DNA of 64,000 nucleotides from an uncultured Candidatus Saccharibacteria bacterium. Lineage in GTDB: Bacteria; Patescibacteriota; Doudnabacteria; UBA920. The stretch is from positions 393 to 64,392 of the forward strand of contig CAYZEI010000001.1 of assembly GCA_964477745.1 (NCBI GenBank), written 5' to 3'. Position numbers and translations under genes: made by a program. A model generated the notes under the pieces. That model was not told where the DNA came from and searched no databases. It saw only the letters and a list, made by a program, of their open reading frames with translations. Shown here piece by piece: positions 4,583 through 47,829 of this stretch. Positions within the stretch are counted from its first letter, which is position 1, and every line of letters starts with the position of its first letter.

Positions 4583-5452
4583 TTATAATTCATAAACAAA
4601 ATTTAATCCTAATTCTTTTTGCAAGCCTTGTCCTCCTCCAATAAGCCATGTAAAATTTTTCCTTTGGCTTTTAGGCATATTTTCTAAAGCTCTAGCAAAT
4701 TCCTCCGGAGAAGGCCAGTTAATATTGGCTTGAGTGACGGGCTTACTCTGCTGTTCTGCGCTTACTTTAATTAAACCCTCCAATTTTTCATTTTTCTCTT
4801 TTGGAATTTCCCAATTTGCGTCAGCTAAAATTTTAAATATTTCTTCATCTAAACAGCCTTCTGGTTCTTGCATCAGCTTATTAATAAGTTCTTCATTGTC
4901 TAAAATATTTTTTAATATTAAAGCATAATTATAATCAACGGCCTCATAGCAATCTTCTCCAAAATCTAAACAAAGCGTATAGGGGTAACCTCCTCTGCTT
5001 TTGACATCAAGAAGTTTTCTTAAAATAAGATAGCTCCCCCCATTCTTTTTTTTAGCCACCCCATAAGAAATTTTATTTCCACTTCTATCCAAACCCTCCC
5101 TTGTACCAGCAATTCCTGAGTCCATGGGCTGTTCTCCTCGTCTAATACGTTCAATATAGCCTGTTCCACCATAAGCGTATAAACTAAAATCCTTCAAATT
5201 TTTCCAAAATGTTATTATCTTTTCGGCTTGAAATCCTCCAACTATTTCTGCTGGTTGTTTATTATTTATAAGTGCCTCTTCCCACTGGTAAGCCCTCTGG
5301 GCCAACACAGGATCTCCAGATGCCTTAAGCCTGTCTATATGCTCTTGGGGTGTAACAATTCGTCCAGCTTTAAAATCATCAGGATCTGTGGCAGGCAATC
5401 CCAGCTCATCCTCTGGAACATCATTAAACAAATTTTTAGGTTGTTCTTTCAT
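4583..5452 (-). CDS. Hypothetical protein (289 aa)
   Basis: Long ORF in protein-like codon phase on the gene-dense minus strand. No motif recognised. Confidence 0.45.
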   Translation of the reverse strand: MKEQPKNLFNDVPEDELGLPATDPDDFKAGRIVTPQEHIDRLKASGDPVLAQRAYQWEEALINNKQPAEIVGGFQAEKIITFWKNLKDFSLYAYGGTGYIERIRRGEQPMDSGIAGTREGLDRSGNKISYGVAKKKNGGSYLILRKLLDVKSRGGYPYTLCLDFGEDCYEAVDYNYALILKNILDNEELINKLMQEPEGCLDEEIFKILADANWEIPKEKNEKLEGLIKVSAEQQSKPVTQANINWPSPEEFARALENMPKSQRKNFTWLIGGGQGLQKELGLNFVYEL

Positions 5453-6502: not shown

Positions 6503-8017
6503 ATGAAAAATTTCCAAAACTTTTTAAACTGTATTCCGCATAAATTCAAGCCCGAAGACGAGGCTTTAATTAAGCGTGCTTATGAATTGGGAATTAACGC
6601 TCATAAGGGCCAAAAGCGCAGAAGTGGCGCAGATTATTTTACCCATGCCTGGGAAGCGGCCATAATTTTGGGTAGCTTATTCCCCGACGCTCCCACCTTA
6701 GCCGCCACCCTACTTCATGATGTCCCGGAAGACACCACTGTAACCATAGACGAGCTGACAAAAAATTTCGGGCCTGAAATTTCCGGACTAATTGACGGCG
6801 TTACCCAATTGGGACGAGTGCGAATGAAAAACAGCAAAGATAAATTTTACGTGGAAAACTTACGTAAATTATTTATCGCCACCAGCCGAGATATTCGGGT
6901 AATTTTAATTAAACTTGCCGACCGTCTGCATAACATGCGGACCATAGAATTTATTCCGGCCGACAAACAAATTAAAGTGGCCACAGAAACTCTGGAAATT
7001 TATGCACCCATAGCTGCCCGTCTGGGTATTTCCAGCTGGAAAGACGAACTGGAAGATTTGTCTTTTAAAATTGTGTTCCCGAAAGAATTTGAAAAAACCA
7101 AAAATCTTTTGGATGCAGAGCTGTCCAGTCGGGAAGAAAGCAACAAAGAAACCCAAAAAAGTTTAACTCATATTTTGCGAACCGAGGGTATAAAGTTTGA
7201 GGAAGTAAACGGCCGGGTCAAACGTTTATATTCCCTATTTCGCAAACTCCAAAAATATGAAGGCGATATTACCAAAATCCATGATTTTATTGCCTTAAGA
7301 ATTATAACCAAATCCACTGCCGACTGCTATGCAGCCTTAGGAGTAATTCACAAACATTTTCAACCCGTGCCGGGACGGATTAAAGATTTTATCGCCAACC
7401 CCAAACCTAACGGCTACCAAAGCATCCACACAACAGTATTCGGCAAAAACGGCAAAACCATTGAAATACAAATTCGTACCGACTTAATGCACGAAGAAGC
7501 GGAACGTGGGGTCGCAGCTCATTGGTTTTATGCCGAGGAAGGTAAACCAGAAGCGGCCGGGAGAGCACAAGCCAGCTGGATAAAAGAATTACAAAGTTGG
7601 CAAGAAGAAACCAACAACCCGGAAGAATTTTTGGAAAGTTTAAAAATAGATTTTTTCCGTGACCGCATTTTTGTCTTTACTCCCAAAGGTGACATTAAAG
7701 ATTTACCCGGCGGGGCTTCGGTCATTGATTTTGCTTTTTCTGTGCATACTGACTTAGGCTACCATATGATGGGCGCCAAAATAAACGGTAAAATGAAGAG
7801 CATCTACGACCAGTTGGAAAACGAAGACGTGGTAGAAATTATTAAAAGTAAAAAGGAAGCTGTCATTTCCCGCGATTGGCTTAAAGCCGCCAAAACCCAC
7901 AGTGCGCGCAATAAAATTCGCCATTATCTAACCGAACACGACACGGGTATTTTAAAACGAATTAAGGAACTTAAACTTAAAGATTTCTCCCTACCCAGAT
8001 TCTTCCGAAAAAAATAA
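6503..8017 (+). CDS. relA: Bifunctional (p)ppGpp synthetase/hydrolase (RelA/SpoT homologue, short form)
   Basis: HD hydrolase motif (HxxxGxxRxSGxPY...H...DV.ED), a synthetase region (RIKDF..ANPKPNGYQSIHTTV) and a TGS-like segment. Confidence 0.85.
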   Translation: MKNFQNFLNCIPHKFKPEDEALIKRAYELGINAHKGQKRRSGADYFTHAWEAAIILGSLFPDAPTLAATLLHDVPEDTTVTIDELTKNFGPEISGLIDGVTQLGRVRMKNSKDKFYVENLRKLFIATSRDIRVILIKLADRLHNMRTIEFIPADKQIKVATETLEIYAPIAARLGISSWKDELEDLSFKIVFPKEFEKTKNLLDAELSSREESNKETQKSLTHILRTEGIKFEEVNGRVKRLYSLFRKLQKYEGDITKIHDFIALRIITKSTADCYAALGVIHKHFQPVPGRIKDFIANPKPNGYQSIHTTVFGKNGKTIEIQIRTDLMHEEAERGVAAHWFYAEEGKPEAAGRAQASWIKELQSWQEETNNPEEFLESLKIDFFRDRIFVFTPKGDIKDLPGGASVIDFAFSVHTDLGYHMMGAKINGKMKSIYDQLENEDVVEIIKSKKEAVISRDWLKAAKTHSARNKIRHYLTEHDTGILKRIKELKLKDFSLPRFFRKK

Positions 8018-8074
8018 CACCAACTTGACTCATCCTCGCTTTGCCCTATATACTCCCTCCTGAAAGGAGGGGTC

Positions 8075-8341
8075 ATGCCAAGCAATACCCCTGATATCTT
8101 TTTGAACTGCATGTGCGGGGGTTCGGGATTTTCTGAACTAAAGCTCCATAAGTTCCTTCAATACCACCTAAAAGCGGGATGGGAGTCGGGGCAAACCAGA
8201 GTAGCCCCCTACAGTGTGATGTTTTGCTTCACCTATGCCTGCAAGTCCTGCAACAAAAAGACCATTGTCCAAATTGAGGCACCAGAAGCAGTTCGCTCGG
8301 CGAACATCGCAGACCACGGCAAAATCAAACAGCCTGACTAG
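8075..8341 (+). CDS. Possible small Cys-containing protein (88 aa), uncertain
   Basis: ATG preceded by AGGAGGGG. Contains CMCGG and CKSCNKK. Followed by two terminator hairpins. Could equally be a non-coding leader/trailer. Confidence 0.25.
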   Translation: MPSNTPDIFLNCMCGGSGFSELKLHKFLQYHLKAGWESGQTRVAPYSVMFCFTYACKSCNKKTIVQIEAPEAVRSANIADHGKIKQPD

Positions 8342-28248: not shown

Positions 28249-28980
28249 TTACGGGGTAATAACCCCGAGTACAGGCACAATCTTGTGCCCAACAGTAGCT
28301 GCCGGTCCGGAGACCGGCCACAGCCACCATGCCAAGAATGCTTCAGCGGGGCAAAAGCCGATTTTCTCGGCAGTTCCCCACTTGGACCAATCGCGGATAC
28401 CAACGGTGTACGCATACACGCAGTGGATAACCGGTAACTTGGTCCACAAAGGCCGACCCTTCTTGTCCCAAGTCAAGGTGACCTGGTACTGTCCGGTTTC
28501 CGGCCAATCGGGCGGGGGCGGAAGCTCGTTGAGCTCCACCGGCGGTTCGGCCGGTGGTAAAGTTACTTCCGGTTCCGCAGGTGGCGGAGGTGGTGGTGGC
28601 TCGGGAGCCGGTGGCGGAGGTGGTGGTGGAACAGGAACGTACTCAAGAGAATACACCTTATTCCCGCAATCATACCGCACCATTACTGAACTTCCGGAGA
28701 AGATGAACTTCTCGCCGGCTGCTTGGGGAACAAACCCCTTGCCACCAACGATATCCATCTCTACGCACGCACGCTCCTCAAGAGCGCGAATTTCTTCACC
28801 AACCGCCGGTTCGCGGTGACGGTTAAGGAAAGACGGGGTGTAATTTGAAAACTCCCCACTCTCCACCGCCGAGACGCACGCGGCCATTGTTGCAAAACGC
28901 GTTTTGCCGGTTTCCGCTCCGAAGAGCATCATCCCGGCGAAGATTGAAAGACACAAGAGTTTCAACATAGCCACCAACAA
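28249..28980 (-). CDS. Secreted poly-proline protein (243 aa) with Trp-rich C-terminal domain
   Basis: Signal peptide MLVAMLKLLCLSIFAGMMLFGA. PVPPPPPPPAPEPPPPPPPAEPE tract. Local GC well above the window average. Confidence 0.55.
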   Translation of the reverse strand: MLVAMLKLLCLSIFAGMMLFGAETGKTRFATMAACVSAVESGEFSNYTPSFLNRHREPAVGEEIRALEERACVEMDIVGGKGFVPQAAGEKFIFSGSSVMVRYDCGNKVYSLEYVPVPPPPPPPAPEPPPPPPPAEPEVTLPPAEPPVELNELPPPPDWPETGQYQVTLTWDKKGRPLWTKLPVIHCVYAYTVGIRDWSKWGTAEKIGFCPAEAFLAWWLWPVSGPAATVGHKIVPVLGVITP

Positions 28981-29195
28981 ACTTTTGGTTCACCTAATAG
29001 CTATAAGCTAAAACCAAAAAGCTAACTGGTCGCTATGTTGAAATCTACAATTTCCTCCTTATATTATTTTAGACAAATTTTGCCTAATGTTTTTTACCAA
29101 AATATTTTTAGTATAAAACATCAAACAAAATTTTTAAAAGTGGTGGTAGAAGTGCGGGCCGATTGGGTCCGCACTTCTACCTTGCTTATAAAGCG

Positions 29196-30443
29196 TTACT
29201 GGGCTTTGCAGCCCTTGGGGGGCCGTGCCCCCTCATTCAGCATTCCGAGCGACATGAGTCGCTTGAATGCTGAACACTTGTTGCTCTTGCTGTCGGTGAT
29301 GGCGGCTGCGCCAACCACCGCCAGCGTCTCGTGATCCGAGTTCTGGTTATCCCGAAGGGTAACCATCCGCTCCTCCGCGGTTGTAAGACGACTGCCCAAC
29401 TCTACCTGTCGGCTCGCCAACAAATTCTGGCGACCTTCAACCGCAACGAGCCGGTCGACGACCTGCTGGCCGAGGCCAGAAGGAGCAGGAGCCGAGTTGT
29501 TGGGTGTTGCCGACATCATTGTCGGCGGATTGATGACCGGAGCCGGTGGGGCCGGAGGAGTGCTGGGCATTGCTGCCTTCACACCCTCCATCACCGCACG
29601 CTTGATATCATCCGCCGTGAGTTGCGAAACCACAGGCCGAGGGGCCGGTGGGGCAACGTGGCGACGAACAGGAGAAGGCGCGGGTGCAGAAACGGCCGGC
29701 TTGGGAGCCGGAGTAACTGCCGGAGCAGGCGTCGGATTGACGATCTGACTCAACCAGCCCTGGATACCGTTCACCTTTCCCCAAACCCAAACCTCGTTAG
29801 CGGTCTGTGCGGTTGCCGTCTGACCCAATGCTCCGAAGAGCAAGAGGGCAAACAGTATCATGGGCAGAACGTTTCCACAATTCGCGCAAAACCGATCGAA
29901 TTGAGTCGGCTTCGGCACATTGCAATTGGGACACGGTGTCCCAGCAGGCGCAAGATGCGCCGGCGTTGGATTCCTCAAACTCGCTGCCAGATCAATGTTG
30001 ATTGGAGGTGGCGGATTGAGTTGAACCGTAACCGGAACAGTCATCTGATTTCCCGTTGCCGGATGATGACCGTTGGTACGGTTCCTTCGAACCAGCGCCA
30101 AAATCACACCGCCGACAATGAGCAAGGCCAAGAGAGCCAAGAACCACTGGCCGTATCCCCAATCCGTTGAGGGAATGGGGCTGACAGTGGCGTCCTTGTG
30201 GCTGTACTTGTTCATGACCGCCACAACCTTTTCGCCCTTTGCCATGGCCTGTTGGATCTCCTGATCCAGAGGTGTGGCAGGAGCAGTTGGGGTCGTGGTC
30301 GGAGCAAGCCCTTCAGGCTTCGGGCAGAACGTCTGCCCGCCTTCGATTTTGAAACATCCAGCGGGAACGGTCTGGGCGTTGACAGTGGTCACCAGCGCGC
30401 AGCTGGCGACGAGAACGGTGAGAGCGAACAATGTGTTACGCAT
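29196..30443 (-). CDS. Pro-rich membrane protein with cytoplasmic Cys4 zinc ribbon (416 aa from ATG 30443; the track ORF extends to 30569)
   Basis: The ATG at 30443 has AAGGAG 10 nt upstream and starts a signal peptide MRNTLFALTVLVASCALVTTVNA. TM WFLALLALLIVGGVILALV. Zinc ribbon CPNC...CANC. Second hydrophobic segment, then Pro/Ala-rich ectodomain. Confidence 0.55.
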   Translation of the reverse strand: MRNTLFALTVLVASCALVTTVNAQTVPAGCFKIEGGQTFCPKPEGLAPTTTPTAPATPLDQEIQQAMAKGEKVVAVMNKYSHKDATVSPIPSTDWGYGQWFLALLALLIVGGVILALVRRNRTNGHHPATGNQMTVPVTVQLNPPPPINIDLAASLRNPTPAHLAPAGTPCPNCNVPKPTQFDRFCANCGNVLPMILFALLLFGALGQTATAQTANEVWVWGKVNGIQGWLSQIVNPTPAPAVTPAPKPAVSAPAPSPVRRHVAPPAPRPVVSQLTADDIKRAVMEGVKAAMPSTPPAPPAPVINPPTMMSATPNNSAPAPSGLGQQVVDRLVAVEGRQNLLASRQVELGSRLTTAEERMVTLRDNQNSDHETLAVVGAAAITDSKSNKCSAFKRLMSLGMLNEGARPPKGCKAQ

Positions 30444-30974
30444 GGAAATGGACTCCTTAGATTTCCGGCGCTCGCCGGTTTTTTTGCAAGAATAGCGAGC
30501 GCCTCTTGCAGACAGTAGAGAATTAACTTCCCTATTCTCCGCAAAAGGCGTAACCATTCCTTGCAACAATCCAATTTCTCCATTCTATTCCCTATTCGCT
30601 AATCGCTATTTACTAAACTAAAAGTAACGCTTTATAACTTAAACCTCCGTTTAAGTTTTTATTAAAGAACTTGCCTATTTAATGTAGAGACAATCTCCCA
30701 TTAAGTAGACCTTATATTATACTCTTTTTTCAGTATTTTGTCAAGTCCTAATCTAAATACTAATTAACTAATAAAATGCCTTATTTAAGCCAAAAAAATC
30801 AAAAAGAGGTATCGGCGAGCAAATATGCTCAAGCGCGACACCTCTGACGAATAAATCTTGCGTTTTGTTGGGTTCGCTACCCAAGCGTAATCAGTCAATT
30901 TGGACACAACTGACTACTACTTCCTCCTACTAAATTCTTTCTTCAAAAATGCTGAATCTGGATCGTCCAAAATT

Positions 30975-32024
30975 CTACATCCCCGAAGATTCCCTCCGCT
31001 CGGCCCTTTCGGCAATCTGCTTGATATCCTCCGAAAGAGGACGAGGAACTATCGACAGCTTTCGAGGAGACTGAACCGGCCCAATTGGTTCATGAGCCTC
31101 TGGAACCGCTTTCACGATCTGCGGAGGCTTTTCCGTACTGATGCGACGCCGGCGAATCGTCTTCCGTAGGCTTTTCATTTGCCTATCGACCCATACGGGA
31201 TTAGACTGAAGGGCCAAATAGGTTAACAAAAATACCGCCAGAAATACCATAAGGGTAATAAAGCGGAGGAAGTAAGGCTTCGTCTCCGCGCGCCTTTGGG
31301 ATTCCTGCTTCGCTGGTTCTTCTTCGGTTGTCTGAGAGGGCGCCGGAGCAGGAGCAGAAGCCACCTGAGGGGCCTCGTCAACCACTTTCCCAACTAGCAT
31401 TGTTATGCCACTGGGGTCTTGATTGACTTGATCCTTTGTAGCAACCGCCAACTTCTTTTCAGTTGCCGGCGGAATTTCCAGTGGCGCTTGCTTGGCAACA
31501 ACTTTCGCTGGTACCGGAACTGTCGGAATCACCTTCACAGGCGTTGGCGCCGTAGTGGCAACCTTGGCCACTACGGGTGTTGGGGTTGCTTTTGGCGCCG
31601 GTGTTGGAGTCGTTTTTGCAACGACCTTAGCCGGAGAAGTCTTCGGCGTTGGCGCCGGAGCGACGACGACTGCCACCACTTTTTTCGTGGTTGCTGTCGA
31701 GCTCAATATTTCAACCTCACCGAACTTTGCGTTTTCAGCCGCCAAGTATTCTGCCAGGCTAACCTGGTTAATCTTGGTGCCCTTGATCAACCAAAGCTGG
31801 TCGCCCGGGTGGAAGGAGCGAACTTCGTCCTTCCCGACCTTCTCGCCAGTTGCGGTGCCTTTGCGCAACTCAGTGTAGAGTCGCGCATTGTAGCCGACCG
31901 ATTCAACTGCTTCCATTAGTCCCTGGCCAGGAGCCAGGGTAATTTGTACGTCACGGTCTGGAATGGCCTGCGCCATTGCCATAACCGTGAAAAGCAGAGC
32001 TAAAACAAACCTTGTGGGGTTCAT
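30975..32024 (-). CDS. Bitopic envelope protein: signal peptide, LysM-like N-domain (tentative), Pro/Thr/Ala/Val-rich linker, TM helix, basic cytoplasmic tail
   Basis: MNPTRFVLALLFTVMAMAQA signal. TPTPAPKATPTPVVAKVATTAPTPVKVIPTVPVPAKV linker. TM YFLRFITLMVFLAVFLLTYLAL. The LysM call is a weak pattern match only. Confidence 0.6.
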   Translation of the reverse strand: MNPTRFVLALLFTVMAMAQAIPDRDVQITLAPGQGLMEAVESVGYNARLYTELRKGTATGEKVGKDEVRSFHPGDQLWLIKGTKINQVSLAEYLAAENAKFGEVEILSSTATTKKVVAVVVAPAPTPKTSPAKVVAKTTPTPAPKATPTPVVAKVATTAPTPVKVIPTVPVPAKVVAKQAPLEIPPATEKKLAVATKDQVNQDPSGITMLVGKVVDEAPQVASAPAPAPSQTTEEEPAKQESQRRAETKPYFLRFITLMVFLAVFLLTYLALQSNPVWVDRQMKSLRKTIRRRRISTEKPPQIVKAVPEAHEPIGPVQSPRKLSIVPRPLSEDIKQIAERAERRESSGM

Positions 32025-42553: not shown

Positions 42554-43807
42554 ATGCATCGTTTAACATTAGCAAAAATTTTTATTGGTATTCTTTTTAC
42601 CCTTGGCCTTATCCTTGGGATTCTTCAGCACAATAACGATCCTTACTTTGGCTCAACCAAAACCAGCTACAACTTTGCTGCGAGCGACAAGTCTTTAAGT
42701 ACCTATTTCAAACAAGCCGAGGATCTGGCGAAAAAAACCGACACTAAAGCCAATGTGAGTTTTTTGGCGGTTGGTGATATTATGCTCAGCCGGAATGTGG
42801 CCGGGGAAATCCAAAAAGCTAAAAATATAAATTTGCCATACGAGAAGATGGCGGAAATTTTAAAATCCACAGATTTTAATTTTGGCAATTTTGAAAGCCC
42901 GTTTTATAAAATTTCCAAAAATTGCCTGGCCTCAGAAGCGGTCGGTATTATTGGCGGACACTCTCTGGTCTTTGGCTCTCCCTGTTTATATGTTAAAGGG
43001 TTAAGAGATTATAATTTTCAGATTCTTAACTTGGCAAATAATCATGCGCTTGATCAAGGACTTGTGGGCTTAAAATTTACAACCTCATTACTTTCTGACC
43101 CTAACGTCGCAATCCAACATATTGGCGTTGGAGAAAATTTGGATGATGCCTGGAAACCGGCAATTGTGGAAGCCAAGGGTATGAAGATTTGTTTTATAGG
43201 CGCATCTTACTCCTCTATAAATGATGGCGGGAAAGCCACAAATGAGTATGTGGCGCGCATTGAAGACGCTGAAAATCTTAAATCTTCAATCCTAAATCTA
43301 AAATCTAAGTGCGACTTTGTCGTGGTAACTATGCATGCGGGAACGGAATATGTACGCAAGCCGAATCAGGCGCAAATTACTTTTGCCCACGCCGCGATTG
43401 ACGCGGGGGCAGATATGATAATCGGCGCACATCCGCATTGGGTACAAACAATAGAGCGGTACGCACCAAATTGCCCCTCCCCAATTCATGGGGAGGGCGG
43501 CTCGAGTGCATCCGAGGAGCAGGAGAGTTTAAAATGTGGCGATCCAAAGTACATTTTCTACTCCTTAGGCAACTTTATTTTTGACCAAATGTGGAGCCAA
43601 GACACTCGTGAAGGCTTGACCTTAAAAATTAACCTTTCTAAAAGCATTGCCCCCAACCTGCAAGGCAATCACCAACCAGCCAAATTGGAGTCCGTGGAAT
43701 TAATTCCCATTATTATTGACAACTACTCCACTCCCCGCCCCGCAACAGAAACCGAAAGCAAAAAAATCCTGGAAAAAATTGGAGAAAAAGAAAAAATATT
43801 ATACTAA
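42554..43807 (+). CDS. CapA/PGA_cap-family metallophosphoesterase-like protein (capsule/poly-gamma-glutamate-type biosynthesis family), membrane-anchored
   Basis: N-terminal TM. LAVGDIMLSRNV..., NLANNHALD, MHAGTEY...GAHPHWVQ metallophosphatase-like motifs typical of CapA. Confidence 0.75.
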   Translation: MHRLTLAKIFIGILFTLGLILGILQHNNDPYFGSTKTSYNFAASDKSLSTYFKQAEDLAKKTDTKANVSFLAVGDIMLSRNVAGEIQKAKNINLPYEKMAEILKSTDFNFGNFESPFYKISKNCLASEAVGIIGGHSLVFGSPCLYVKGLRDYNFQILNLANNHALDQGLVGLKFTTSLLSDPNVAIQHIGVGENLDDAWKPAIVEAKGMKICFIGASYSSINDGGKATNEYVARIEDAENLKSSILNLKSKCDFVVVTMHAGTEYVRKPNQAQITFAHAAIDAGADMIIGAHPHWVQTIERYAPNCPSPIHGEGGSSASEEQESLKCGDPKYIFYSLGNFIFDQMWSQDTREGLTLKINLSKSIAPNLQGNHQPAKLESVELIPIIIDNYSTPRPATETESKKILEKIGEKEKILY

Positions 43808-43864
43808 TAAAAAATTACGGCGGTCATGGGTGTTATTCCACGACCGCCGAGCTGCCTGCGTTAT

Positions 43865-44080
43865 TCATCGAGCCGTCTTTCGCCAGCTAAAAACCCAGAA
43901 CAGGAAAGCTATCGCGCTGAACACTCCGCCGAAGAAGACGAAGTCGCCCAACGCCCTTCCTGCAAAAAAGCGCGTAGCCTCTGATGCGGTTGGGTCGAGG
44001 ACCGTGTTAACACAGGCGCGGAGTTCCCACAAAACAAAAGCGCCAAAAACTGCCGCTAACATCTTATCCCATCTGTCCAT
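43865..44080 (-). CDS. Small two-TM membrane protein (71 aa) in a GC-rich islet
   Basis: Strong RBS GGAGGTG before the ATG. Two hydrophobic helices. Local GC about 50-55% against an AT-rich background. Confidence 0.35.
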   Translation of the reverse strand: MDRWDKMLAAVFGAFVLWELRACVNTVLDPTASEATRFFAGRALGDFVFFGGVFSAIAFLFWVFSWRKTAR

Positions 44081-44110
44081 TTCATCACCTCCTTCCAGAT
44101 GAAACTTGGC

Positions 44111-44335
44111 CTAATGAGATTCGTTGCGATAAACCCGCATGAGCACCTTCAGAAGGGACAAATAGCCACCAAATGTAATCAGCAAAATAATCGGGATCGA
44201 GTATTCATCCCCCGGTTGCGGACGGGGAGAATGGAAAATACTCCATGACATTTTCCAGATGCACAGCTCCAGGATTGTCGCTACCCCTACACTCATGCCG
44301 AGAATAGCCAACGTCTCTTTCTTTGCTTTATCCAT
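44111..44335 (-). CDS. Small two-TM membrane protein (74 aa) in a GC-rich islet
   Basis: RBS AGGAGGA before the ATG. Two hydrophobic helices. Tandem with the 71-aa gene. Confidence 0.35.
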   Translation of the reverse strand: MDKAKKETLAILGMSVGVATILELCIWKMSWSIFHSPRPQPGDEYSIPIILLITFGGYLSLLKVLMRVYRNESH

Positions 44336-44462
44336 GAATCCTCCTACAAACTTTCAAGCCTTAATATATTATCTTTTTCTTACATAATTATCAACTTATG
44401 ATTTTTATGAGTAGATTTGACAATTTGAAACATCATTGCGATAATTAAATTAGGCTTAATGA

Positions 44463-45470
44463 TTGTCGAATTATTTTATGTATTTTAACGAGTGGAATAA
44501 AGAAGAAATAAATAAGTTAAAAAAACTTTACCCTATTATGCGCGTCAAAGACTTGACCAAATTCTTTCCTAAACGAAATAGGTATACAATAGCGGCCAAA
44601 GCACTTGCGTTAAAGCTGCCATCAGCAAAACTATGGCAGGATGAGCAAAACAAACAACTCCAAGAAAAATTTGCTAAATCTTCTAAAGAAGAACTACTAA
44701 AATTATTTCCCAATCGCACCTGGTTGGCAATTGTAGCTCAAGGGGAGAGATTAGGTATAGAAAGAAATAGAAACAAACCAAGGCTTAGAGTGAATGAAGA
44801 CTATTTTAAAAAATGGTCTCCAAATATGGCTTATGTTCTTGGTTTTATATTGTCAGATGGCTGTATTATTAAGGGAAGCCATAAAGGATATAGTGACGCC
44901 TTAAAATTCGGGGTGCAGTTAAAAGACATTGATATTCTGGAAAAAATCAAAAAGCAGTTATCATCAGCTCATTCTATATCAGTAGTCAGAAATGCCGCCT
45001 ATTTATCCATCTCCAGTCAAAAATTAGTAAATTGTCTCAAAACTTTAGGAATAACATATAAAAAAAGTTTAAAGGAGACTGTCCCACGCGTCCCTAAAAA
45101 ATACGTAAAAGATTTTGTTCGCGGGTTAATTGATGGCGATGGTGGAATTTCTATTGATTCTAATAACTACCCCACCTTAAGATTTTATGGAGGAATTAAT
45201 ACTGTAAACTTTGTCAGAAACTACTTTTGGAATAAATTTAAAGCACTCTCAAAGATTGGTAAAAAACAATCCAAGCTTGCACCAAAAATTTATCTCTGCT
45301 ATATTGCATATCGTACAAATACTGCAAAAAAGTTAATTGACCATTTGTATAAGGGTGCTGAAATATTTTTAGACAGGAAGTATAATCTTGCCTTACGGTG
45401 CGAACACATTCAAATTAGAAAAAGAAGTAACCCATCAGTCACTTATGAAAAAACAATTAATTATCGTTGA
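44463..45470 (+). CDS. Free-standing double-motif LAGLIDADG homing endonuclease with N-terminal tandem helix-turn-helix-like repeats
   Basis: LAGLIDADG motifs AYVLGFILSDGCI and FVRGLIDGDGGI about 100 aa apart. The N-terminus has two repeated modules (W..E....L..L.P.......L...FP.R.), each about 40 aa. Its 3' end overlaps the topA start by 26 bp. Confidence 0.8.
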   Translation: MSNYFMYFNEWNKEEINKLKKLYPIMRVKDLTKFFPKRNRYTIAAKALALKLPSAKLWQDEQNKQLQEKFAKSSKEELLKLFPNRTWLAIVAQGERLGIERNRNKPRLRVNEDYFKKWSPNMAYVLGFILSDGCIIKGSHKGYSDALKFGVQLKDIDILEKIKKQLSSAHSISVVRNAAYLSISSQKLVNCLKTLGITYKKSLKETVPRVPKKYVKDFVRGLIDGDGGISIDSNNYPTLRFYGGINTVNFVRNYFWNKFKALSKIGKKQSKLAPKIYLCYIAYRTNTAKKLIDHLYKGAEIFLDRKYNLALRCEHIQIRKRSNPSVTYEKTINYR

Positions 45471-47829
45471 GAGCCCCACAAAATCTAAAACCATCCAAAG
45501 ATTTTTAGGTTCCGAATATCAAGTCGAGGCCAGTATTGGTCATGTGCGAGATTTACCGAAAAGCAAAATTTCCATTGACGTAGAACATGACTTTGAACCA
45601 ACCTATATTATTCCGCTAAAAGCCAAGGAAACCGTAGCCAAACTGAAAAAACTGGCCAAGGACGCCTCCTCTATTATATTAGCGACTGATGAAGACCGCG
45701 AAGGAGAGGCTATTTCCTGGCATTTAGTGCAAGCTTTGGGTCTGGGAGACGAAGCGGAGATTGCCAAAGGCAAGGAAGACAAGCGCATAAAACGCATTGT
45801 TTTTCACGAAATTACCAAAACTGCCATTGAACAGGCGTTAAAGAACCCGCGCGATATAGACTTAAATTTAGTGGATGCCCAACAAGCCAGGCGCGTGTTG
45901 GACAGGTTGGTGGGTTATGAACTCTCGCCGTTTTTGTGGCGCAAAATCCGTTATGGTCTTTCCGCCGGTCGAGTACAATCGGTCGCGGTCCGTTTAGTAG
46001 TGGAACGGGAACGAGAAATTAAAAATTTCCAACAAGAAGAATATTGGAGTATAGAAGCTCAGCTTTCTAAACAGACCTCCGACAAAACTTTTACGGCTCG
46101 GTTGCAAAAAATCGGCGACAAGGTTGTAGGCAAAATGGACATTAATAAAGAAGTTGAGGCCAAAAAAATTGTTACAGATTTAGCCGGTGCCCAATACCAA
46201 ATTCAAGATATTTCTACCAAAGAAGTAAAAAGAAATCCGTCGGCTCCATTTACCACTTCTACCCTGCAACAAGAAGCGGCGCGCAAATTCGGTATGTCCG
46301 CCAAGCAAACCATGGTCATTGCTCAACAGCTGTATGAAGGCGTAAAATTGGGCGAAGAGGGTCATCAAGGTTTGATTACTTACATGAGAACCGACAGTTT
46401 AAATTTAGCGCAGTCAGCCTTACAGGCTATTAAGCAAGTAGTGAGCGCAGAATTTGGCAAAGAGTATTCACTTTCTGAACCGCGACATTTTACCAACAAA
46501 TCCAAAGGCGCGCAGGAAGCACACGAAGCTATTCGTCCAACCGATGTGTTAAGAAAACCTAGTGACATTAAAGAGCACCTAGACAAAGGTCAATACAAAG
46601 TTTACGACCTAATTTGGAAACGCACTATCGCCTGCCAAATGGCGCCGGCCGTGCTGGAACAAACTGCAGTAGACATTGTAGCAAGTAGCAAGAATCAAAT
46701 ATCAAGCGAATACATTTTCCGCGCCAACGGACAAACTATAAAATTTGACGGTTTTATTCGTGCTTACACCGAAGGACAAGACGAAAAAGCCGAAGACGAA
46801 ATCGAAGGCGTTTTGCCGGAACTGACTTTGGAAGAAATATTAAAATTACACGAACTCTTGCCGTTGCAACACTTTACCGAACCGCCGGCCAGATACTCTG
46901 ACGCCACTTTAATTAAAGCCTTAGAAGCCCATGGCGTCGGCCGTCCTTCCACTTATGCTCCAACTCTCTCCACTATTCAAGACCGAGGCTATGTAGACAA
47001 AGTAGATAAAAAATATAGCCCGACCGAAGAAGGTTTTTTGGTTAATGATATGCTGGTAGAAAATTTTCCGGAAATTGTAGATATTAATTTTACTTCCCAT
47101 ATTGAAGAAGGTTTTGACAATATTGCGGAAGGTAAAATCAAATGGGTAGAGGTCATGAAAGAATTTTACGGCCCGTTTAAAAAACATTTAATCGAAAAAG
47201 AAGCCAGTGTTCAAAAAGAAATAGAAGTTTCCACTACCCCCTGCCAGCACTGCGGTAAAATGATGTTGATAAAATACGGGCGTATGGGAAAATTCTTAGC
47301 CTGCCCGGATCCGGAAAGTAAAATTACTCAGCCAATGCCGGAGGAAGCGGCTAAAATAAAAGCCCTGGAAGAAAAAACCAAAGGGGAAATCTGCCCGATA
47401 TGCGGAAAGTTAATGCAAGTAAAACGCGGACGGTTTGGATTTTTCCTGGGTTGCCAAGACTACCCAAAATGCAAAGGAATCAGTAAAATTTGGAACAAAA
47501 CCGGCTATAAATGCCCTGCCTGTCTTGCGAAGCAAGAGGGTGAGCGAAGTCGAATCCCTAATGACCCCGCCCATTCGGCAAGCTCAGGACAATCAGATAA
47601 ACTGATTGGCGATGTAGTAGAGCGAAAATCTCGCGGTCGCGGTAAGGCCTTCTTTGGCTGTACCCGGTTCCCGGACTGTACCTTTGTAATGAACGTGAAA
47701 CCGGAAAACCAAACTGAGCTGGACGAAGCCTACAAAAATTGGAAAGCCAATCCTCCAAAGCCAAAAAAAGTTTGGAAAAAGTCCGCCAAAGGCGGATCCG
47801 CCTCAGGCGGGAAAAAAACCTCGGAATAG
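45445..47829 (+). CDS. topA: DNA topoisomerase I with C-terminal Cys4 zinc ribbons (start taken at MKKQLIIVESPTKSKTIQRFLG; the track ORF begins 57 nt upstream)
   Basis: TOPRIM N-terminus IIVESPTKSKTI, active-site region, three C-terminal CxxC...CxxC zinc ribbons. Confidence 0.9.
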   Translation: MKKQLIIVESPTKSKTIQRFLGSEYQVEASIGHVRDLPKSKISIDVEHDFEPTYIIPLKAKETVAKLKKLAKDASSIILATDEDREGEAISWHLVQALGLGDEAEIAKGKEDKRIKRIVFHEITKTAIEQALKNPRDIDLNLVDAQQARRVLDRLVGYELSPFLWRKIRYGLSAGRVQSVAVRLVVEREREIKNFQQEEYWSIEAQLSKQTSDKTFTARLQKIGDKVVGKMDINKEVEAKKIVTDLAGAQYQIQDISTKEVKRNPSAPFTTSTLQQEAARKFGMSAKQTMVIAQQLYEGVKLGEEGHQGLITYMRTDSLNLAQSALQAIKQVVSAEFGKEYSLSEPRHFTNKSKGAQEAHEAIRPTDVLRKPSDIKEHLDKGQYKVYDLIWKRTIACQMAPAVLEQTAVDIVASSKNQISSEYIFRANGQTIKFDGFIRAYTEGQDEKAEDEIEGVLPELTLEEILKLHELLPLQHFTEPPARYSDATLIKALEAHGVGRPSTYAPTLSTIQDRGYVDKVDKKYSPTEEGFLVNDMLVENFPEIVDINFTSHIEEGFDNIAEGKIKWVEVMKEFYGPFKKHLIEKEASVQKEIEVSTTPCQHCGKMMLIKYGRMGKFLACPDPESKITQPMPEEAAKIKALEEKTKGEICPICGKLMQVKRGRFGFFLGCQDYPKCKGISKIWNKTGYKCPACLAKQEGERSRIPNDPAHSASSGQSDKLIGDVVERKSRGRGKAFFGCTRFPDCTFVMNVKPENQTELDEAYKNWKANPPKPKKVWKKSAKGGSASGGKKTSE

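Follow-up and report, generated by a model that had tools for sequence, protein, structure and literature searches.

A free-standing LAGLIDADG homing-endonuclease gene, probably mobile, at the 5' end of topA in Patescibacteria

Intronless homing by free-standing homing-endonuclease genes (HEGs) is an established mechanism in phages, as exemplified by the seg (GIY-YIG) and mob (HNH) genes of T-even phages, and in mitochondria the atp6 element of Allomyces is an HEG linked to a partial duplication of a host exon. The LAGLIDADG scaffold has also given rise to WhiA, a transcription factor that has lost the catalytic residues, carries a C-terminal helix-turn-helix (HTH) domain and is universally conserved in its clades. 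Published work further places nuclease genes at boundaries of genetic exchange (PMC10448857), links HEGs in atp6 and nad3 of Ophiostomatales to partial exon duplications (PMC7902536, PMC12308204) and locates LAGLIDADG genes of the candidate phyla radiation (CPR, or Patescibacteria) in intron-like insertions of 16S and 23S rRNA genes, without mention of topoisomerase or of free-standing copies (PMC11270868). Here, we analyse a LAGLIDADG gene that lies directly upstream of topA, the gene of topoisomerase I (TopA), in a stretch of 64,000 nucleotides (nt) from an uncultured Candidatus Saccharibacteria bacterium (Doudnabacteria in the GTDB lineage; contig CAYZEI010000001.1), the whole of which we call the window. 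Comparative sequence data make it probable that this gene is an active or recently active free-standing HEG that homes at the 5' end of topA in Patescibacteria. Our literature searches found no description of this family or of an association between LAGLIDADG genes and topA.

Like the free-standing HEGs of phages, the gene encodes a stand-alone nuclease at a conserved gene, is patchy among close relatives, has a flank that appears to be co-converted and joins extra modular DNA-binding domains to the nuclease; its distant relatives are themselves mostly phage genes. Unlike the seg and mob products, however, the topA-linked protein has a LAGLIDADG core and is encoded in the chromosome of cellular CPR bacteria. 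It also departs from phage HEGs in that its position at the 5' end of topA is the same in several candidate phyla, and from those in spacers in that the element replaces the promoter and first codons of the host gene. As in the mitochondrial exon-duplication cases, the host gene remains intact because part of the coding sequence next to the HEG is duplicated or replaced, although the site is here the 5' end of a bacterial gene, there is no intron, and the upstream remnant appears to carry the element promoter. The protein shares its fold and the motif-terminal acidic pair with I-OnuI, I-AniI, I-Tsp061I and the endonuclease domain of PI-PfuI, but is only 10-21% identical to them, has no intron or intein host and bears two (in some homologs three) Myb/GcrA-like repeats. 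WhiA likewise combines a LAGLIDADG scaffold with HTH modules on a bacterial chromosome; in contrast to WhiA, the topA-linked endonuclease keeps both Asp residues, has N-terminal HTH repeats and occurs patchily. Finally, the LAGLIDADG genes in CPR rRNA insertions belong to the same superfamily, occur in the same organisms and also sit at a highly conserved target sequence, whereas the gene studied here is free-standing and located at a protein-coding gene.

What is new, therefore, is a chromosomal family of Myb-repeat LAGLIDADG HEGs that is specific to the topA 5' end of the CPR and supplies a promoter and 5' codons; the mechanism, intronless homing, is already established and no new principle is involved. 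The family is specialised for the start of an essential housekeeping gene of uncultivated CPR bacteria, and we have mapped its boundaries and identified the presumed co-converted flank. Such an element would imply homologous DNA exchange among ultra-small, host-dependent cells. It would occupy an unusual harmless seat inside a coding region, where the HEG brings a promoter and a replacement 5' end, and the family offers a naturally HTH-extended LAGLIDADG scaffold together with a concrete target prediction, in the sequence of topA that encodes the TOPRIM motif.

Occupied and empty sites upstream of topA

The features of the locus on which the argument depends are as follows, the element being delimited against the element-free locus L175 (L numbers denote the loci compared).

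44463-45470, + strand: endonuclease open reading frame (ORF), 335 amino acids (aa), TTG start, alternative ATG at 44478
about 44401-45513, + strand: putative mobile element, comprising promoter, leader, endonuclease ORF and the first 23 codons of topA
44417-44445, + strand: element promoter, sigma-70-type, TTGACA-N17-(TG)cGATAAT
44456-44476, + strand: conserved leader, TTAATGATTGTCGAATTATTTT, 21 nt, just 5' of the ATG at 44478
45445-47829, + strand: topA, 794 aa, with the Pfam domains Toprim, Topoisom_bac and Zn_ribbon_Top1
45445-45513, + strand: topA codons 1-23, element-borne (the presumed co-converted flank)

All genomes compared are metagenome-assembled and all trees are neighbour-joining trees. 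A contig identical to that of the window is also present in the metagenome SRR32414321. A scan with one genome per species yielded 16 loci with a full-length homolog of the endonuclease, in Doudna-, Staskawicz-, Wolfe-, Nealson- and Gribaldobacteria and in unclassified Patescibacteria. In all of these loci with readable downstream DNA, the gene is followed immediately by topA in the same orientation. The two are separated by -53 to +63 nt, except in L007, a stop-truncated copy, and in L011, where two small ORFs lie between, and dprA is usually found upstream of the endonuclease gene. The ordinary bacterial arrangement, as judged from a metagenome scan with TopA, is dprA followed directly by topA, and empty dprA-topA or capA-topA sites are interleaved with occupied ones in the CPR part of the TopA tree. 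A TopA protein search combined with gene context identified the six nearest Doudnabacteria relatives, L171-L176, all of them without the endonuclease gene. The TopA proteins of L171-L174 are 83-85% identical to that of the window; L175 and L176 belong to the same 90% TopA cluster as the window, with topA genes 87-92% identical at the nucleotide level. The order is pth-dprA-capA-topA in L176 and capA, two small ORFs and topA in L175. An earlier note on this DNA, made from the sequence of the window, had proposed to look for relatives in which capA and topA adjoin without the intervening genes, and this arrangement is found in L171-L174 and L176. The element-bearing Doudnabacteria (L007, L021, L167, L168 and L170) are more distant from the window in pth, dprA, capA and ndh, and when the N-terminus is left out of the TopA tree, the window falls within the empty alleles. 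One homologous site is, in other words, occupied in some and empty in others of these related genomes. L175 also has a gene for an IS200/IS605-type Y1 transposase just downstream of topA (7642-8286), which is absent from the window.

The constancy of the site upstream of topA across Doudna-, Wolfe-, Staskawicz-, Nealson- and Gribaldobacteria could be expected of a domesticated LAGLIDADG protein, that is, a WhiA-like, vertically inherited and host-beneficial regulator or accessory factor of the dprA-topA operon, with a benefit such as the control of topA expression or of supercoiling. We regard this explanation as quite unlikely. That the six nearest relatives lack the gene and have retained one common native topA promoter is not readily reconciled with a regulator of this kind, nor is a topA tree in which bearers and non-bearers interleave.

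The boundaries of the element point in the same direction. In a blastn comparison, the window and L175 are collinear up to about 44397-44400 and again from 45514, and 1.1 kb of the window stands in place of 248 bp of L175 (4822-5069). These 248 bp hold the native topA promoter, a long 5' untranslated region (5'UTR) and the first 23 codons of topA, and the native promoter, TTGACA-N17-TAAACT, is common to L175, L176 and L171-L174. With a score of 11 of 12 and an extended -10, the promoter found in the window ranks first among the sites of the region; its layout recurs in six of six element-bearing Doudnabacteria loci. The leader TTAATGATTGTCGAATTATTTT is near-invariant in six Doudnabacteria loci even though the proteins are only about 70% identical, and the ATG that follows it, at 44478, is the start called in the nearest homologs. 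The topA ATG, at 45445, overlaps the last 26 nt of the endonuclease ORF, just as the earlier note had reported. The native 5'UTR of topA that can be seen in the element-free L171-L174 (capA-topA spacer, about 4800-5000) is about 100-150 nt long and rich in short repeats (ATCTGTA, AATCTTA/AATCTG), may form a regulatory element, and is lost where the endonuclease element is present.

The start of topA in the window is itself divergent from the rest of the gene. Its nucleotides 1-69 are 57-62% identical to those of L175 and L176, against 86-92% for the remainder of topA (Fisher p 3e-10 and 8e-10), and 75-81% identical to those of other element-bearing alleles. At the protein level, element-type alleles carry the signature K-S-[KR]-T-I-Q-[KR]-F-L-G-S (K-S-K-T-I-Q-R-F-L-G-S in the window), and empty alleles K-[AG]-[KR]-T-I-S-R-F-L-G-G. 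The topA gene of the window is thus a mosaic that changes abruptly at nt 69: since the first 69 nt are of the element type and the remainder resembles element-free relatives, codons 1-23 must have come with the element, and these foreign codons are, as read from the alignments, the co-conversion signature expected of homing. A longer co-conversion tract of up to about 540 nt, suggested by an informative-site breakpoint test against L171-L174, was discarded in favour of the break at nt 69 that is obtained with L175 and L176, which are closer references.

These observations bear on two of the alternatives. Domestication had been suggested to us by synteny and by a conservation like that of TopA, and the empty nearest relatives and the mosaic topA 5' end, with its foreign codons 1-23, led us to reject it; in its favour, topA now depends on the element promoter and overlaps the endonuclease ORF. 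The second alternative is an ancient vertical gene, which would derive from a single early insertion, would have been cleanly lost many times and may now be inert. Flanking direct repeats of the topA 5' end could mediate precise excision in such a history. Deletion between repeats would nevertheless not recreate the native promoter, long 5'UTR and canonical 5' codons that the empty loci L171-L176 share, and the mosaic topA of the window with its sharp break speaks against it as well; we give this history little credence.

Under the homing interpretation that we prefer, the endonuclease would recognise element-free topA in the DNA encoding the TOPRIM motif L-I-I-V-E-S-P-T-K-A-K-T-I and make a double-strand break in the empty allele. 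Repair from an element-bearing copy would then install the gene together with about 70 nt of topA, which is intronless homing with co-conversion. The element promoter would drive the endonuclease gene and, as it replaces the native promoter, probably topA too. Because topA starts inside the final 26 nt of the ORF, its translation may be coupled to that of the endonuclease. By bringing a promoter and replacement topA start codon and first codons, the element would be tolerated by its host. Transfer between cells could take place by natural transformation or by phage. A further possibility, which we consider unlikely, is that the element, usually found beside dprA, drives and marks CPR gene flow by natural transformation.

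The nuclease core and its HTH repeats

The protein is divided into the following parts.

44493-44759, + strand: two three-helix HTH repeats resembling Myb and the GcrA DNA-binding domain (DBD), aa 11-52 and 58-99
44817-45407, + strand: pseudo-dimeric LAGLIDADG nuclease core, about aa 119-315
LAGLIDADG motif 1: YVLGFILSDGCI, predicted catalytic D132 at nt 44856-44858
LAGLIDADG motif 2: FVRGLIDGDGGI, predicted catalytic D226 at nt 45138-45140

The AlphaFold (AF2) model of the protein, built on 54 homologs, has a mean predicted local distance difference test score (pLDDT) of 88.9 and contains tandem alpha-beta-beta-alpha-beta-beta-alpha domains that form a pseudo-dimer. A Foldseek search with this model gave 134 PDB matches at E<=1e-3; all 50 of the 50 matches listed are LAGLIDADG proteins, including homing endonucleases, meganucleases, intein endonuclease domains and the bI3 maturase, and the top ones are the monomeric enzymes I-OnuI, PI-PfuI, I-Tsp061I and I-AniI. 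Sequence searches agree in part: PHROG 4645 ('endonuclease') matches aa 74-312 with E 1.1e-41, the Pfam match to LAGLIDADG_3 is marginal (23.0 bits against a cut-off of 22.5) with LAGLIDADG_1 below its cut-off, a PDB sequence search returned PI-PfuI as sole match (E 0.04), and an NCBIfam search gave no match. The motifs end in the expected acidic residues, LGFILSDG (D132) and RGLIDGDG (D226). As the earlier note had advised, we checked whether these are retained: both catalytic Asp residues are intact, and in the alignment of 54 homologs D132 is invariant and D226 is kept in at least 90%. Such conservation, unlike the loss seen in WhiA, does not fit the domesticated regulator. Enzymes of this class cut long target sites (about 20 bp) and leave 4-nt 3' overhangs. 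If it works like the LAGLIDADG enzymes of solved structure, the protein, whose nuclease activity is predicted, would contact an asymmetric stretch of about 22 bp through two beta-sheet saddles, with D132 and D226 coordinating the catalytic metals.

The gene stands on its own, as had been proposed from the window sequence. The Pfam scan found no Hint or Intein domain in the protein, Rfam gave no match at E<=1 within 43000-46500 and hence no intron, and the gene has its own promoter and start with a complete topA downstream. A protein search retrieved 156 homologs, all from Patescibacteria, full-length and 50-75% identical, and the close ones, about 150, all carry the annotation 'hypothetical'. 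After clustering at 50%, the topA-linked clade is reduced to one full-length representative (547 bits), and the wider superfamily comprises 430 clusters at E<1e-30 and 17,820 at E<1e-10. This superfamily is abundant in phage genomes as free-standing genes, with at least 357 viral matches. Based on the model and these searches, we predict that the protein is the product of a free-standing HEG, a monomeric LAGLIDADG endonuclease with two domains.

The N-terminal 100 residues are occupied by two copies of a conserved three-helix bundle of about 45 aa, with helices in the model at 13-22, 28-31 and 40-49 in the first repeat and at 60-69, 75-81 and 87-96 in the second. The Pfam search found no Myb match in the window protein itself. 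Relatives with arrays of the repeat module match Pfam Myb_DNA-binding (PF00249, PF13921) with E-values down to 9e-44, and their arrays form fusions with nucleases of either the LAGLIDADG or the HNH type. Among known structures, the module most resembles c-Myb R2R3, SNAPc Myb and the GcrA DBD (root-mean-square deviation 1.5 A over 44 aa), with weak matches throughout (E>0.6). In the homing model, the Myb-like repeats would contact flanking DNA and extend the DNA footprint. The earlier note was right about the presence of these repeats, but they are not unusual for such enzymes: the same HTH-LAGLIDADG architecture occurs in hundreds of protein clusters, many of them from phage. Being standard across the superfamily, the repeats are no argument for domestication, which the note had taken them to suggest and which the third C-terminal copy of some homologs might also seem to favour. 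This third Myb-like repeat is present in about one-third of the homologs (365-390 aa; seen in the alignment for P0018, P0024, P0028, P0038, P0085, P0087 and P0109), and the window protein is without it.

Target site, age and conservation

Traces of the presumed insertion site are seen in other loci. Of the 18 non-redundant element-bearing loci, 9-10 have a short duplicate of the topA start at a distance of 35-45 nt on the 5' side of the endonuclease gene; these are mostly loci of the Paceibacteria type, in which dprA abuts the endonuclease gene. The remnant consists of the ATG and about 8-12 codons (M-N-L-V-I-V-E-S-P-T) followed by a stop or by divergence, and its similarity to topA ends after the P-T-K codons. 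When scored with a 27-nt weight matrix derived from functional topA starts, the remnants reach 12-29 bits, a score attained by 0-1 of 9,000-34,000 background positions per locus. By eye, an extended -10 box can be recognised 3' of the remnant in the Paceibacteria-type loci, 6-8 nt before the ATG of the gene, and the former V-E codons contain a -35-like TTGAAA or TTGTAG. From these alignments we infer that the recognition site lies in the DNA encoding the TOPRIM motif, with the break or insertion near codons 11-12, and the likely target of the endonuclease is its own locus in the element-free state. In the window, the leader aligns by hand with topA 45457-45471 at about 11 of 15 positions and could, tentatively, be a relic of the topA codons L-I-I-V-E, although it is not significant in the 27-nt matrix scan of the window.

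An element of this type should not cut its own allele, and a sequence difference that correlates with element status was found at the presumed site. The canonical motif ESP[TA]KA[KR]T is rare in element-bearing alleles (2 of 17) and frequent in CPR alleles that lack the element (12 of 14; Fisher p 5e-5, without phylogenetic correction; our Fisher association tests treat loci as independent despite shared ancestry), and of 58 other bacteria 46 have it. The substitutions vary from clade to clade (S, G, AA, AN and AL). Immunity of element-bearing alleles is likely to be conferred by substitutions at codons 12-13 and nearby, a proposal that builds on their correlation with element status only. The Ser codon of VESP (AGY in element-bearing, TCN in element-free alleles) was also considered as an immunity mark and dismissed, as the bearer L170 has TCA and several empty alleles have AGY.

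The age of the gene relative to its flanks was estimated from fourfold-site divergence. It is 0.31-0.40 for the endonuclease against 0.57-0.74 for TopA and DprA among L015, L017, L019 and L020, 0.39 against 0.59 for the adjacent TopA and DprA between L016 and L009, and 0.49 against 0.72-0.76 between L002 and L112. In three clades, then, the endonuclease gene is by these alignments younger at synonymous sites than its flanks, which is at odds with an ancient vertical gene. The ratio of nonsynonymous to synonymous substitution rates (dN/dS) of 0.12-0.18 indicates purifying selection. In most genomes compared, the GC content at third codon positions (GC3) of the gene is below that of the host flanks, and in the window its GC content of 0.331 (z -1.96) is below that of all 57 other genes scored. 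Two copies each have a single nonsense mutation (L007, TGA at codon 233; L011, TAA at codon 145) in an otherwise conserved sequence. A synonymous divergence below that of the flanks, an AT-rich composition and the existence of nonsense alleles are likewise hard to accommodate in a host-beneficial regulator. As far as sequences can tell, the pattern is that of the homing cycle: functional copies spread, are retained for long and occasionally decay or are absent. The earlier note had held the endonuclease to be either selfish or domesticated, and the evidence favours a selfish, mobile gene over a domesticated regulator.

In one clade, a 57-aa HTH_17 (excisionase/MerR-like) gene with its own promoter lies between dprA and the endonuclease gene (L017, about 7590-7766; L020, about 1560-1740; L015, about 300-423). 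It is 84-88% identical in nucleotide sequence between loci where the flanking dprA has 61-69% protein identity, so it may travel with the element.

Several results weigh against the homing interpretation. Mean pairwise identity is 56.5% for the endonuclease and 57.6% for TopA, an unusual conservation for a selfish gene. Endonuclease and TopA distances correlate (r 0.54, Mantel p 2e-4), so that much of the history of the endonuclease has been vertical. Between the window and L021, fourfold-site divergence is 0.50 for the endonuclease and 0.57 for topA; with a synonymous divergence in the window's clade this close to that of topA, the copy described here is not demonstrably recent. The matrix scan gave no statistical support for a topA 5' remnant in the window itself, and the left junction has no clear homology arm. 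Moreover, the TOPRIM motif is encoded in full even by the element-bearing allele, which leaves only a few substitutions to account for immunity. The correlation of endonuclease distances with those of TopA and DprA, and the similarity to topA in synonymous divergence within the Doudnabacteria clade, are what an ancient vertical gene would produce; a protein whose conservation equals that of TopA, and exceeds that of DprA in one clade, is what domestication would. Strong conservation and a largely host-congruent history thus leave a small chance that the gene has acquired a host function. An intermediate form of this idea, which we consider unlikely, is a half-domesticated nuclease-regulator. 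Having taken the place of the promoter, 5'UTR and first codons of topA, with the topA start inside its final 26 nt, the element may control the expression of topoisomerase I in the genomes that bear it, and its Myb-LAGLIDADG protein might bind topA-like sequences both at the 5' end of the element and where topA begins; if this were true, the TopA-level conservation would reflect selection at the level of the host. We nevertheless favour homing at the topA 5' end as the probable explanation of this locus.

Neighbouring genes and parallel cases

The earlier note had also drawn attention to a higher-GC patch immediately upstream, on the opposite strand, with two tiny proteins of two transmembrane (TM) segments and strong Shine-Dalgarno sites, and this observation is borne out.

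43818-43849, - strand: terminator-like hairpin that ends the operon of the small ORFs
43865-44080, - strand: sm1, 71 aa, two hydrophobic segments (two-TM)
44111-44335, - strand: sm2, 74 aa, two hydrophobic segments (two-TM)

The Shine-Dalgarno sites of the small ORFs read AAGGAGGTGAT-N5-ATG and TAGGAGGA-N4-ATG, and their GC3 is high, 0.61 for sm1 (z +2.8) and 0.55 for sm2 (z +2.1) relative to 57 window genes. The note had seen in these genes and the endonuclease a single accessory insertion between capA and topA. A composite islet of this kind would account for the adjacency and divergent transcription of the two parts, for their outlying composition and for their joint absence from L176 and L171-L173. 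The comparison with L175 largely disproves it: L175 has the small-ORF pair and a 65-nt stretch upstream of it (about 97% identical) and no endonuclease, an arrangement that indicates two independent insertions. Other element-bearing Doudnabacteria have unrelated ORFs at this position, and in GC content the small ORFs deviate upwards and the endonuclease gene downwards. We therefore consider a composite islet very improbable; on the sequence comparison, sm1 and sm2 are a separate, earlier insertion between capA and topA, outside the endonuclease element. Relative to their counterparts in L175, sm1 is 76% identical (dN/dS 0.18) and sm2 35% identical (dN/dS 0.55). The 65 nt upstream of sm2 (44336-44400) are about 97% identical between the window and L175 despite the 35% identity of the sm2 proteins, and this strongly conserved non-coding stretch is probably the promoter or leader of the small-ORF operon.

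Elsewhere in the window, three adjacent ORFs of 243, 457 and 349 aa on the - strand (28249-32024) have a GC content of 0.54-0.58, compared with 0.42 for the rest of the window. A Pfam search with these ORFs gave no match, and the region may be another foreign block.

Two groups of distant relatives are found at other housekeeping genes. In three unrelated archaea, a distant HTH-LAGLIDADG relative lies directly upstream of the S-adenosylmethionine synthetase gene, metK (L030 4482-6552, L038 7851-9839 and L045 7836-9857, from Methanosarcinales, an uncultured archaeon and a metagenome-assembled genome of Nanoarchaeia). The synthetase ORF there starts at position 17 of the Pfam N-terminal model (the Cys of ...CD[KQ][VI]SD), and these loci could represent a second HEG in the 5' end of a housekeeping gene; no 5' remnant similar to those at topA was found upstream of the archaeal HTH-LAGLIDADG genes. 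In three CPR genomes, LAGLIDADG relatives of about 225 aa without HTH repeats lie within 1-2 kb of gyrB (L024 7980-8651; L031 7947-8636; L086 5987-6682), and the GyrB protein of L086 (1130 aa) contains an intein inside its Toprim domain.

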